This document shows, in pieces, positions 23,526 through 35,654 of a DNA stretch of 64,000 nucleotides. A program made the position numbers and the translations under genes. Source of the stretch: Escherichia coli (GTDB taxonomy: Bacteria; Pseudomonadota; Gammaproteobacteria; Enterobacterales; Enterobacteriaceae); the NCBI RefSeq assembly GCF_003334315.1, contig NZ_QOWR01000019.1. One strand, given 5' to 3'. Below the pieces are notes generated by a model that was not told the origin of the DNA, did no database searches, and worked only from the letters and a program-made list of their open reading frames with translations. Each line of letters begins with the position of its first letter. Within the stretch, counting starts at the first letter, position 1.

Positions 23526-24425
23526 TTACGCAGAGAAAAAGGCGATGAGGATCGGCACTAACAGGCTAAGAATAAAACCGTGAACAATTGCCGCCGGGAC
23601 CATATCCAGCCCGCCAGTACGTTGAAGAACGGGCAGGGTGAAATCCATTGATGTGGCACCGCATAAGCCCAGTGCAGTAGAGCGGCTGCGGCGAATCAGC
23701 CCAGGGATCAACATAATAGCAATCAGTTCACGGGCCAGATCATTAAAAAACGCCGCGCTCCCGATTACCGGGCCAAAAGATTCGGTCAATAAAATACCGG
23801 AAAGAGAATACCAGCCGAAACCGGAGGCCATTGCCAGCGCGGTATTGATGGGGAGATCAAGAATAAAGGCGTTAATTAAACCACCAATTAATGAACTGGC
23901 AACCACCACCACGGCGACAATCATTCCCCGGCGATTAAGGACAATCTGCTTTAAGGTCATGCCATTATTGCGCAACTGAATACCGACGAGGAAAAGTAGC
24001 AGAATTAACGTGTATTCGCTGGCTTCGGTCGCGTGTTGTAAGAAAGCCAGTCCACTCAGACCAATGGCAAAACCAATCACTACTACGCCGCACAGTTTTA
24101 GCGACTCCAGCGCCATCGCAATACGCGACGGGAGTTTTTCTTGCTGATGGTGATTGCGCCATGGCAGGCCTCGCTCCAGCCACATCAGGGCGGCAATATT
24201 ACATAGTAAAATAACGGTAATACTGACAGCAGAATAATGCAGAATCGCCAACAGGTTACTGGCGAGGTTATCGAGAAACGCCAGACTGATACCCATAAAA
24301 AAGAGAATAAGGTAAACCATCCAGCTTAATAGCTGATTAATAACTTTTAATGCAGCTTTTTGGCGAAGCGGAATGAGGTAACCCACAATCAGGGGAACCA
24401 GAATGATTAACAGCCCAGAAAACAT
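23526..24425 (-). CDS. ybjE: Lysine exporter LysO (YbjE)
   Basis: ORF track 23526..24473; start set to the ATG at 24425 (MFSGLLIILVPLIVG...), 299 aa, polytopic membrane protein. Confidence 0.85.
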   Translation of the reverse strand: MFSGLLIILVPLIVGYLIPLRQKAALKVINQLLSWMVYLILFFMGISLAFLDNLASNLLAILHYSAVSITVILLCNIAALMWLERGLPWRNHHQQEKLPSRIAMALESLKLCGVVVIGFAIGLSGLAFLQHATEASEYTLILLLFLVGIQLRNNGMTLKQIVLNRRGMIVAVVVVASSLIGGLINAFILDLPINTALAMASGFGWYSLSGILLTESFGPVIGSAAFFNDLARELIAIMLIPGLIRRSRSTALGLCGATSMDFTLPVLQRTGGLDMVPAAIVHGFILSLLVPILIAFFSA

Positions 24426-24630
24426 GAAAACCCAGTCCTTGCAAAGATGAAGTCGAAATGCGCGATGACACACTACTGAAAGCGGAAGGACGAGTAAAGT
24501 TGCAATTAAAAGGAAATGTTATGCATAAGGAGCAGTAGAGTATTCGTTTTCATTTAAAGATATTCTTGCGCTTTAATTACAAACTGCACCGATGTTGGTG
24601 GCGTCAAAATCGCCGAGGCGTTCCCTGAAG

Positions 24631-24810
24631 GCCGGGGCAGCCCACATGGATGTGGGCTGAGGGCGCGTTTTACAGGGATGTTACCTCGCGCCCGACCCGG
24701 TAGCCGTAAGGGATAAGTCGAGGGCACCGCGCAGCGGCGATTTTGTTCGCCAGAGCCCGGGGGTGCAGGGGGCGGCGGCGATTGGCCGCCCCCTGCGCGC
24801 TCCTTGCGCC
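24631..24810. repeat. GC-rich multi-palindromic intergenic element of unknown function
   Basis: Three near-perfect inverted repeats: CAGCCCACAT-GG-ATGTGGGCTG (24638-24659); GGGCGCG-N19-CGCGCCC (24661-24693); GCAGGGGGCGGC-N8-GCCGCCCCCTGC (24765-24796, 12-bp perfect stem). No T-run follows either strand, so it is not an intrinsic terminator. Confidence 0.45.
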
Positions 24811-24880
24811 AGTGGCAATATGTGGCTTAGCTCATGAAAGGAGCGCAACAAGATGATGAATCAACATATAACAACATCTT

Positions 24881-24908
24881 AAAAAAAGGCCTGACATTAC
24901 GCCAGGCC
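24881..24908 (-). terminator. Rho-independent terminator of aqpZ
   Basis: Minus-strand hairpin GGCCTGGCGTAATGTCAGGCC followed by TTTTTTT, immediately downstream of the aqpZ stop. Confidence 0.75.
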
Positions 24909-24919
24909 TTCTGCGTTAA

Positions 24920-25615
24920 TTAATCACGCTTTTCCAGCAGGGTCCGGTAAATCAGACCACCGATAATGCCGCCGACAATTGGCACCACCCAGAAGAACCA
25001 CAGTTGTTCTAATGCCCAGCCGCCCTGGAAGATAGCAACCGCGGTGCTGCGCGCCGGGTTAACAGAAGTGTTAGTCACCGGAATACTGATTAAGTGAATC
25101 AGGGTTAAGGCCAGACCAATAGCGATCGGCGCAAAACCTGCCGGAGCGAATTTGTCGGTTGCGCCGTGGATCACCAACAGGAAACCTGCACTCAATACCA
25201 GTTCAACTACCAGCGCGGAAAGCATGGAATAACCGCCTGGTGAATGCTCGCCATAACCGTTAGAAGCAAAACCGCTGGCTGCCGCGTCAAAACCCGTTTT
25301 ACCACTGGCAATTAAATACAGCAGCGCTGCCGCAACAATACCGCCGACAACCTGGGCAATTACGTAGCCAACGACTTCTTTTGCCGGAAAACGTCCGCCA
25401 GCCCATAAACCAATAGTGACCGCCGGGTTAAAATGACCACCAGAAATATGACCAACAGCAAAGGCCATCGTCAGAACGGTCAGACCGAACGCCAACGCCA
25501 CGCCGGCAAAACCAATGCCTAATTCCGGGAAGCCTGCGGCCAGTACAGCACTACCACAGCCACCAAAAACAAGCCAGAAAGTACCAAAACATTCAGCTGC
25601 TAATTTTCTGAACAT
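24920..25615 (-). CDS. aqpZ: Aquaporin Z
   Basis: ORF track 24920..25621; start set to the ATG at 25615 ([13 protein letters not shown]...), 231 aa; both NPA motifs present (HFNPAVT, SVNPAR). Confidence 0.93.
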
Positions 25616-35318: not shown

Positions 35319-35523
35319 GTTCACTGCCGTACAGGCAGCTTAGAAAAACCTACCGTCTTGGCTAGCGGTTGCAGCGAACGTTCACTGCCGTACAGGCAGC
35401 TTAGAAAGGAACAATCTTGCAAAGGCTGTGAAAGTTGGCGTTCACTGCCGTACAGGCAGCTTAGAAATTCACAGGTAACATACTCCACCCACCATGTTCA
35501 CTGCCGTACAGACAGATAAAATG
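35319..35523 (+). CRISPR. Orphan (cas-less) type I-F CRISPR array: 3 full 28-bp repeats plus 1 degenerate terminal repeat, 3 spacers
   Basis: Repeat GTTCACTGCCGTACAGGCAGCTTAGAAA at 35319-35346, 35380-35407 and 35440-35467; degenerate copy GTTCACTGCCGTACAGACAGATAAAATG at 35496-35523. Spacers are 33, 32 and 28 bp. AT-rich putative leader at 35170-35318. No cas genes: clpA lies upstream, tRNA-Ser and infA downstream. Confidence 0.92.
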
Positions 35524-35566: not shown

Positions 35567-35654
35567 TGGCGGTGAGGGGGGGATTCGAACCCCCGATACG
35601 TTGCCGTATACACACTTTCCAGGCGTGCTCCTTCAGCCACTCGGACACCTCACC
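35567..35654 (-). tRNA. serW: tRNA-Ser (long variable arm, 88 nt)
   Basis: Minus-strand sequence GGTGAGGTGTCCGAGTGGCTGAAGGAGCACGCCTGGAAAGTGTGTATACGGCAACGTATCGGGGGTTCGAATCCCCCCCTCACCGCCA; T-arm GGTTCGAATCC, encoded CCA end; GGA anticodon inferred. Position between clpA and infA matches serW. Confidence 0.9.

Follow-up and report, generated by a model that had tools for sequence, protein, structure and literature searches.

A GC-rich group of hairpins in the lysO–aqpZ spacer of Escherichia coli as the core of the TRIP1a repeat (RRS-lysO), and the conservation of its fold

Described systems and the identity of the lysO–aqpZ element

The TRIP1 repeats were first listed by Rudd in 1999 (as recounted by Li et al. 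2024, Genes 15:236). TRIP1a occupies positions 915016–915281 of NC_000913.3 (266 bp), 158 bp upstream of ybjE, 70 bp downstream of aqpZ and 31 bp downstream of the aqpZ terminator (Li et al. 2024). The same authors describe TRIP1b between putP and ycdN, which lacks 125 bp internally; TRIP1c, inverted and downstream of yohI/dusC; and TRIP1d (alx-sstT) and TRIP1e (copA-ybaP), present in some strains only. They also report that TRIP1 copies recombine and thereby rearrange the chromosome. TRIP1 was equated with the 'Replication Risk Sequence' (RRS) by Pham et al. 2024 (NAR 52:6392), a name used in Pham et al. 2023 and 2024 and in the Kusi-Appauh et al. 2026 preprint. RRS-lysO is the 222-bp sequence lying 168–389 bp upstream of lysO (Pham et al. 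2024).

The replication block at RRS, the resulting gaps, their dependence on the element, its ectopic activity, its conditional essentiality and its effects on supercoiling have been demonstrated experimentally by others. [quoted passage not shown] Polymerase stops were shown, and relocating RRS to other sites produced new RecA peaks (Pham et al. 2024). Both native copies could be deleted only with a 200-kb amplification or with ectopic or inverted copies, and the double deletion altered genome-wide supercoiling as detected by Psora-seq (Pham et al. 2024). At least one RRS copy is conditionally essential, and the pair flanks the Ter macrodomain. In single-molecule work, from which a strand-exposure model was proposed, a gap formed at nearly every encounter when the G-quadruplex (G4) strand was the lagging-strand template and at about two-thirds of encounters when it was the C strand. 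RRS is active on naked DNA in vitro.

According to the published mechanism, unwinding of the region by the replicative helicase leaves the lagging-strand template briefly single-stranded, allowing the exposed element to fold into a G-quadruplex on the G-rich strand together with very stable hairpins. Lagging-strand synthesis stops at this fold and restarts downstream, so that a post-replication gap of up to ∼2 kb remains and binds SSB and RecA. The RRS authors hypothesize that such programmed transient gaps are swivels, which would ease topological stress where the Ter macrodomain meets its neighbours. The 'relief valve' role is inferred, as are the relative contributions of the G4 and the hairpins.

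The G4 at pilE of Neisseria gonorrhoeae serves pilin antigenic variation. It is, according to the RRS authors, the only other genomic sequence known to program G-quadruplex gaps, but it is short rather than a ∼270-bp multi-hairpin repeat placed symmetrically about dif. REP/BIME sequences resemble RRS in being GC-rich, palindromic, intergenic, dispersed and confined to enterobacteria, and some BIMEs bind gyrase and hence also have a topological role (RRS literature). However, there is no sequence similarity between the two, and the RRS unit is much longer and its copy number far lower. BoxC/PIT elements are likewise GC-rich enterobacterial intergenic repeats proposed to adopt non-B DNA that blocks polymerases in vitro. 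BoxC differs in being ∼56 bp long with purine/pyrimidine mirror blocks (CCCTCTCCC/GGGAGAGGG), which by inspection are absent from positions 24584–24871 of the DNA studied here.

We analysed a window of 64,000 nucleotides of E. coli DNA (64 kb; one strand, designated +), in which an earlier note had picked out a GC-rich block of about 180 bp at 24631–24810. The spacer that holds the block is 494 bp long and separates lysO/ybjE (− strand, ATG at 24425) from aqpZ (− strand, stop at 24920). The contrast in composition is as the note described: the GC content is 0.60–0.82 over 24600–24839 and 0.30–0.45 in the remaining spacer. The strong inverted repeats were all recovered: a perfect 12-bp GC stem (24765–24776/24785–24796), a perfect 10-bp palindrome (24638–24647/24650–24659), a 16-nt long-range repeat (24605–24620/24730–24745, 88% complementary) and a GGGCGCG/CGCGCCC stem (24661–24667/24689–24695). 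There is no second copy of the element within the window.

The lysO–aqpZ spacer is identical to that of K-12 MG1655 at 493 of 494 positions, the sole difference being at 24824. Window positions correspond to positions in the K-12 segment 911000–918000 plus 20567, and the published coordinates therefore map to 24584–24849 for TRIP1a and 24593–24814 for RRS-lysO, i.e. between the lysO ATG and the aqpZ stop codon. The partner copy at dusC (K-12 2229089–2229437, reverse complement) is near-identical over the whole 222-bp core; the E. coli chromosome carries two near-identical, mutually inverted GC-rich repeats, at lysO and dusC. We also recovered the short form at putP-efeU independently of the publications. 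Sequence, position, G4 motif, strand, dusC partner and putP short form all agree with TRIP1/RRS, and we found nothing against the identification of the block as TRIP1a/RRS-lysO. We consider it very probable that the block is the core of this repeat and that it acts as DNA by the published gap mechanism. The hairpin cluster is thus one that has already been described and experimentally characterised.

The block proved to be real but to be the inner part of a larger unit. Copies at unrelated loci in five genera can be aligned over 24585–24871 and are fully divergent outside these limits. The true unit is ∼270–290 bp long (24584–24871), and 24631–24810 is its interior. On the right, after GGAGCGCAAY, the family ends in a weakly conserved tail of ∼20 nt. 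The features of the element and its immediate surroundings are as follows.

24584–24849, + strand: TRIP1a as in the literature (coordinates of Li et al. 2024 mapped via K-12)
24585–24871, + strand: full extent of the repeat family (nhmmer profile built from copies at unrelated loci, hmm positions 3–290; locus alignments)
24593–24814, + strand: RRS-lysO, the 222 bp deleted, moved or inverted in experiments (definition of Pham et al. 2024)
24599–24752, no strand: closing stem P1 (helices 1–3), pairing 24599–24619 with 24717–24752 and enclosing a branched module (repeats and consensus fold)
24638–24659, no strand: hairpin with a 9-bp stem (24638–24646/24651–24659) and the loop TGGA (palindrome and consensus fold)
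24640–24764, + strand: internal segment of ∼125 bp missing from the short form (alignments; the '125 bp internal deletion' of Li et al. 2024)
24661–24695, no strand: second hairpin, GGGCGCG...CGCGCCC, with apical CAGGGATG (sequence and consensus fold)
24727–24737, no strand: small 4-bp hairpin, CCGC/GCGG (24727–24730/24734–24737; consensus fold)
24759–24778, + strand: G-quadruplex motif GGGGGTGCAGGGGGCGGCGG, the sole exact match in the window, kept in nearly all family copies
24759–24803, no strand: helix 11, the long GC hairpin of 18 pairs (24759–24776 with 24785–24803; repeats and consensus fold)
24805–24847, no strand: 3′ hairpin TGCGC/GCGCA (24805–24809/24843–24847) with a loop of ∼33 nt (repeats and consensus fold)
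24576–24607, − strand: predicted sigma-70 promoter of lysO, TTGACG-20 nt-TGTAAT (table of Shimada et al. 2014, located here)
24882–24915, − strand: aqpZ intrinsic terminator, the right-hand limit of the unique sequence of the spacer (sequence reading; inverted repeat)

Two of the proposals in the earlier note about what the block is not were borne out. It is not a terminator: no terminator-like site was found on either strand in 24380–24960, and neither strong stem is followed by a T run. Nor is it a REP sequence, as the matches of the REP-derived families naRNA4 and ES036 lie in other parts of the window and never within the element. The proposal that it belongs to another family of dispersed intergenic repeat was correct, the family being TRIP1/RRS. 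BoxC/PIT had been our initial guess for a GC-rich, low-copy E. coli repeat and was dropped on the basis of the BoxC description and sequence comparison. RSA, a 152-bp repeat, was also considered and became superfluous once TRIP1 had been matched.

RefSeq has no annotation in the lysO–aqpZ spacer, and the Rfam scan that the earlier note had proposed gave no family at gathering score for the block. With annotation and Rfam model both absent, readers of the sequence alone will go on rediscovering the element as an unexplained structure. As a discovery it opens nothing new, having been catalogued in 1999 and having had an experimentally studied gap function since 2023. The two main TRIP1/RRS papers appear to make no mention of Klebsiella, CsrA or hairpins. 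Beyond those papers, the present analysis makes four additions, all of which we rate as modest: covariation in the hairpins, invariant GGA loops, a sub-threshold likeness to the Rfam family TwoAYGGAY and the many Klebsiella copies in alternating, mixed orientation.

Conservation of the hairpin fold and the G-quadruplex strand

Both strands of the element are predicted to fold with about equal stability. As single-stranded DNA, the 222-bp core gave folding energies of −73.4 and −71.0 kcal/mol for the two strands (z ∼ −6.8 and −6.9), and none of 200 shuffled sequences was as stable. RNA folding against shuffled controls gave z = −4.7 and −4.9.

The comparison of compensatory changes suggested in the earlier note was made with an RNAalifold consensus of 26 full-length copies from five genera, and pairs in the hairpins do covary. 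The consensus has 70 pairs, with 99.2% of cells forming standard pairs compared with ∼40% when the partners are slid by 1–3 columns. In fifteen pairs both partners have changed without loss of pairing, and the observed covariation was reached in none of 500 shuffles. Seven of the pairs that stay paired despite two-sided changes lie in P1. In the TGGA hairpin, 11 copies have A-T and 14 have G-C at the pair 24644/24653; in the small hairpin, 24729/24735 is G-C in 19 copies and A-U in 7. The consensus pairs of the second hairpin are 24661–24664/24690–24693 and, further in, 24672–73/24680–81. Nowhere does the family alignment vary more than in the loop of the 3′ hairpin (helix 12).

The covariation in these alignments shows that selection has conserved the hairpin fold and not the G-tracts alone. 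Watson–Crick covariation is blind to strand and to whether the folding molecule is DNA or RNA, and the pattern is that expected of a DNA element that folds on unwinding. The covariation and the near-equal stability of the two single strands are also consistent with the residual activity of the C strand.

Against this background of covarying stems, the apical loops of the first two hairpins do not vary. Both contain CA-N-GGA-Y-G (CA.GGA.G) in all 26 copies, in the context CA-T-GGA-T-G for the TGGA hairpin, while the stem pairs near them covary and the loop of helix 12 varies freely. A pure roadblock model does not explain the invariant GGA loops. Their conservation suggests that they may have a sequence-specific partner.

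The G4 motif GGGGGTGCAGGGGGCGGCGG occurs on one strand only, as a single exact match on the + strand, and the G4Hunter score peaks there at +1.84 compared with −1.2 for the other strand. The GC skew of the + strand is positive in seven of eight 8-kb bins of the window. The G4 strand thus has leading-strand composition, which indicates that lagging-strand synthesis probably uses it as template, as published. The K-12 lysO locus presumably lies on the right replichore. We had also tried the GC skew of short flanks as a test of orientation (18 of 24 negative); this was discarded as unreliable because the 7-kb flank from K-12 gives a value of 0.001, whereas the skew over the 64-kb window is clearly positive.

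The G4 motif overlaps helix 11, which includes the perfect 12-bp stem, and the G4 and the hairpin therefore compete for the same bases. One pair within the motif, 24765/24796, bears on their relative roles and supports the hairpin. It is G-C in 12 copies (Escherichia and Kluyvera) and A-U(T) in 12 (Klebsiella, Raoultella and Enterobacter). Since this pair covaries, helix 11, the competitor of the G4, would itself be conserved, as judged from a single pair that probably changed once or twice in evolution.

Distribution and orientation of the family

With a 241-nt query, the element was found in every one of 5426 complete E. coli genomes, the median number of places per genome being three (range 1–10), and each of three sub-block queries gave a like result. 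The earlier note had reasoned that many near-identical copies genome-wide would class the block as a known repeat family; copies are indeed found genome-wide, at low number. Besides lysO, the element lies downstream of dusC, putP, alx and copA, in either orientation. In PLSDB it was found at 13 places in one K. pneumoniae record and at 10 in one E. coli record, and it was also present in K. aerogenes, K. variicola and Citrobacter. These matches, which supplied our non-cognate copies, are mostly to chromosomes or chromosomal fragments labelled as plasmids. Two plasmid-labelled matches that had been considered as paralogues are the same chromosomal locus and serve as allelic variants. No match was found in a phage collection of 50,697 records.

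Scanning species-representative genomes with an invariant 24-mer gave 34 loci, in Escherichia (coli, albertii, whittamii and others), Kluyvera, Klebsiella, Raoultella and Enterobacter. Kluyvera has at least eight copies (up to eight of these loci per genome), many of them at contig ends, and tandem copies occur in Klebsiella and Raoultella. Such numerous or tandem copies in Klebsiella and Kluyvera are not obviously needed for a boundary function at two sites. A REP-like sequence regularly stands before the RRS copies of Klebsiella.

Orientation varies both between and within species. K. pneumoniae ATCC 13883 has five copies between 0.83 and 2.18 Mb, a span of 1.35 Mb, on strands −, +, −, + and −. 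At most one of ori and ter can lie within that span, and at least two of the five copies are therefore in the 'wrong' orientation. In E. coli E69 and in a plasmid-labelled record, the lysO copy is inverted relative to lysO and aqpZ, and the dusC locus shows the same orientation polymorphism. Given the alternating Klebsiella strands and the inverted E. coli alleles, the rule that the G4 lies in the template of the lagging strand is not universal across the family.

Deletion variants occur as well. The short form is found both as TRIP1b (putP-efeU) and as a short allele of the lysO locus; the ∼125-bp segment that it lacks is flanked by the imperfect 18-nt direct repeats GTTCCCTGAAGGCCGGGG and GTTCGCCAGAGCCCGGGG. 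Another allele of the lysO locus has a 79-bp deletion of exactly 24613–24691, which removes the two hairpins.

This distribution invites the reading that the family is primarily selfish or adrift, a dispersed repeat like MITEs or REPs that spreads or is shuffled from one intergenic position to another, with gap formation a by-product of foldability rather than a selected function. The spread of copy number (1–10 in E. coli, 13 in the K. pneumoniae record, at least eight in Kluyvera), the tandem copies, the occurrence of both orientations at the same locus among lineages together with the strand alternation in K. pneumoniae, the 79-bp deletion and 125-bp short form, and the recombination between copies that rearranges the chromosome (Li et al. 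2024) are all what such a repeat could show. The hallmarks of mobility were looked for and not found, however. Neither end of the unit (..GTTGGTGGCG and GGAGCGCAAY..) is an inverted copy of the other, so that terminal inverted repeats are missing, and the flanks have no target-site duplication. No clean empty site was seen: at alx-sstT, the only 'empty' allele compared, the entire segment of the K-12 spacer is replaced by a BoxC-type repeat where others carry TRIP1d. There is no associated transposase, no match among the phage records, and the 'plasmid' matches are mostly chromosomal fragments. None of the 5426 complete E. coli genomes lacks the lysO copy. Moreover, cells do not tolerate losing both main copies unless this is compensated, so that the genetics favours a host function, and the covariation is strong, which indicates that purifying selection has long acted on the fold. 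We therefore regard this selfish-repeat reading as unlikely, and prefer the identification as a DNA-level gap element.

The GGA-loop module, alternative readings and implications

The branched core of RRS resembles a described RNA family. The Rfam model RF01731 (TwoAYGGAY) aligns at full length to the + strand at 24604–24743, with a score of 30.6 bits and E = 0.007 in a 491-nt search. One paralogue scored 33.1 bits and one Klebsiella copy 23.3 bits; one Kluyvera copy gave no match. All of these scores lie below the gathering score of 43 bits. TwoAYGGAY is described as having two AYGGAY loops and a P1 that is often very long (Weinberg et al. 2010; Rfam), and it was proposed to bind CsrA, sharing an Rfam clan with RsmW. 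In Psychromonas it occurs in multiple copies, and it is common among the Clostridiales of the gut.

In the lysO element, P1 is present around both AYGGAY-like loops. Loop 1 is AUGGAU, which fits AYGGAY; loop 2 is AGGGAU in E. coli, with G in place of Y, and ACGGAC in two Klebsiella copies. The two kinds of element share a long closing stem, two adjacent hairpins, A-N-GGA-Y loops and an AG joint, and in Psychromonas the TwoAYGGAY copies have conserved flanks, the same loop order and the AG linker. They differ in that TwoAYGGAY members are AT-rich and have no adjacent G4 and GC hairpin, and in that TwoAYGGAY is an orphan family without demonstrated function. Similarity in sequence is limited to the loop: a sequence-only profile of the RRS core aligned with only a 13-nt loop in the Psychromonas members (E = 0.35). 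As judged from these comparisons, the P1 module of RRS appears to be an architectural likeness of TwoAYGGAY rather than a member of that family. That the branched core (24599–24752) and TwoAYGGAY might be the same kind of element, or that RRS might have an unrecognised factor binding its GGA loops, seems to us quite unlikely.

A further reading is that the + strand is transcribed into a TwoAYGGAY-type RNA whose GGA hairpins bind CsrA or another protein, either beside the DNA role or in place of it. The full-length match of RF01731 at 30.6 bits, with 33.1 bits for the paralogue and 23.3 bits for the Klebsiella copy, speaks for it, as do the shared architecture of AG-joined hairpins with the loops CAUGGAUG and CAGGGAUG, the invariance of CA.GGA.G in both loops of the 26 copies while the neighbouring stems covary, and the clan shared with RsmW with its proposed CsrA binding. 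The consensus for CsrA obtained by SELEX is reportedly RUACARGGAUGU, to which the second loop (UACAGGGAUGU) is a close match, and we counted this in favour of an RNA. On the other hand, every RF01731 score is below 43 bits and the Kluyvera copy is unmatched, and the comparison with Psychromonas aligns a 13-nt loop only. A search for signals of a + strand transcript showed neither a promoter-like nor a terminator-like site. In gene-level tables of CsrA CLIP and CsrA effects, ybjE and dusC are negative, and aqpZ is not among the rows listed. The covariation is symmetric between strands and shows no preference for RNA over single-stranded DNA, the short form TRIP1b lacks the GGA-loop module entirely, and the documented activity is on naked DNA in vitro. 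An RNA of this type is thus very unlikely. The earlier note's suggestion of a small structured RNA is not supported, as no Rfam family reaches its gathering score in the block and the demonstrated activity is at the DNA level.

It is extremely unlikely that the element regulates lysO expression in cis, whether by forming a structure in the 5′ leader or by offering a regulator such as ArgP a platform to bind. It does lie 158–168 bp upstream of the lysO start codon, and the −35 hexamer of the sole proposed lysO promoter, which comes from RpoD genomic SELEX (Shimada et al. 2014), falls inside its left end with the −10 hexamer outside; no match was found with the 19-nt spacer given in that paper, the spacer here being 20 nt. 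A weak GalR site has also been predicted in the spacer, purely in silico, at K-12 914977 (window ∼24545), outside the element. However, a transcript from the proposed promoter starts downstream of the element and leaves the leader free of it, the same element lies downstream of the unrelated genes dusC, putP, alx and copA and between unrelated gene pairs in Klebsiella, it is inverted at the lysO locus in some E. coli with lysO intact, and no riboswitch or leader family matches. The structured leader or regulator-binding region for lysO envisaged in the earlier note is accordingly not supported, and the proposed sigma-70 promoter is context, outside the known function of the repeat.

The reading that we retain for the lysO–aqpZ block is that of TRIP1a/RRS-lysO acting as DNA. 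The additions made here bear on questions that are open in the study of RRS, namely the role of the hairpin fold as against the G-tracts and the possible existence of a partner for the GGA loops. Should the likeness to TwoAYGGAY reflect a common kind of element, the TwoAYGGAY 'RNAs' would be gap or foldback repeats acting at the level of DNA, and RRS-like elements would extend far beyond the enterobacteria. Alternatively, the GGA loops may be recognised by a factor such as CsrA on a transcript, or by a single-stranded DNA-binding protein on the folded lagging-strand template, in which case that factor would be an unrecognised component of RRS function.

The copy at lysO-aqpZ and other features of the window

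The copy of the TRIP1 repeat in the lysO-aqpZ spacer (TRIP1a) is nearly identical to that of K-12 MG1655. The sole mismatch across the 494-bp spacer is a G at 24824, where K-12 has a T; it falls within the variable loop that the 3′ hairpin of TRIP1a encloses.

Elsewhere in the window, three sequences matched Rfam families above the gathering score:

9298-9340, + strand: ES036, 42 bits
10320-10400, + strand: naRNA4 (REP/BIME-derived), 75.5 bits
50413-50547, - strand: STnc130, 140 bits

Three CRISPR-DR4 (type I-F-like) direct repeats with 60-61-bp spacing (35319-35467, + strand) adjoin a tRNA gene (35570-35654, - strand). They probably represent the orphan CRISPR array already known from the vicinity of serW and infA.

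Copies in mislabelled or almost certainly contaminated records

E. coli TRIP1 copies, flanked by E. coli sequence, were also found on tiny contigs of non-enterobacterial assemblies. Two RefSeq entries designated E. coli plasmids contain the chromosomal hcp-lysO-aqpZ-ybjD segment.

Records carrying TRIP1 copies or the lysO-aqpZ segment
L033: Bacillus sp. contig, 583 bp, coverage <1x
L021: Pseudobutyrivibrio contig, 432 bp, coverage <1x
L010: MAG contig
L002: NZ_CP148327.1, 42 kb, labelled E. coli plasmid
L003: NZ_CP134387.1, 88 kb, labelled E. coli plasmid

Given the contig sizes, the E. coli flanks and the low coverage of L021 and L033, the copies in the non-enterobacterial assemblies are almost certainly contamination. 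L033 is additionally a chimera of TRIP1a and the short form at putP-efeU (TRIP1b), with a lysO-side left flank and a putP-side right flank; this could have arisen either in assembly or by recombination between TRIP1 copies of the kind described by Li et al. 2024 (Genes 15:236). Several whole chromosomes are likewise listed among the PLSDB ‘plasmids’, including CP125156.1 (5.37 Mb) and NZ_CP134663.1 (4.9 Mb).

Possible larger repeat units in other genera

In Klebsiella and Raoultella, tandem pairs of the element were found (L005, 1565-1851 and 2002-2288; L036, 195-282 and 346-635), and a REP-like sequence (GCCGGGTGGCGGC..CCCGGCCTAC) with a common linker regularly lies ∼60-90 nt upstream of the copies, as seen in the left flanks of L005-L007, L025, L026, L037-L039 and L041. 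What is repeated in Klebsiella and Raoultella may therefore be a larger, composite unit. Five copies (L037-L041) are spread across 1.35 Mb of K. pneumoniae ATCC 13883 scaffold1 (0.83-2.18 Mb), on strands -,+,-,+,-.

At least five copies of TwoAYGGAY, an orphan Rfam family, occur in the single genome of Psychromonas ingrahamii (NC_008709.1; Weinberg 2010 supplement). Because these copies have long conserved flanks in common, the ‘RNA motif’ in this species belongs to a larger dispersed repeat.

Alternative alleles at alx-sstT

Where some E. coli have the TRIP1d copy, the K-12 alx-sstT spacer (L043, 3047-3444) contains a BoxC/PIT-type repeat, CTCCCTCTCCC..GGGAGAGGG..GGGGTGAGGG. Comparison of this allele with L004 (1908-2522) revealed that the entire ∼440 bp segment is swapped. 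Two distinct non-B-DNA repeat families are thus alternative alleles of one site.
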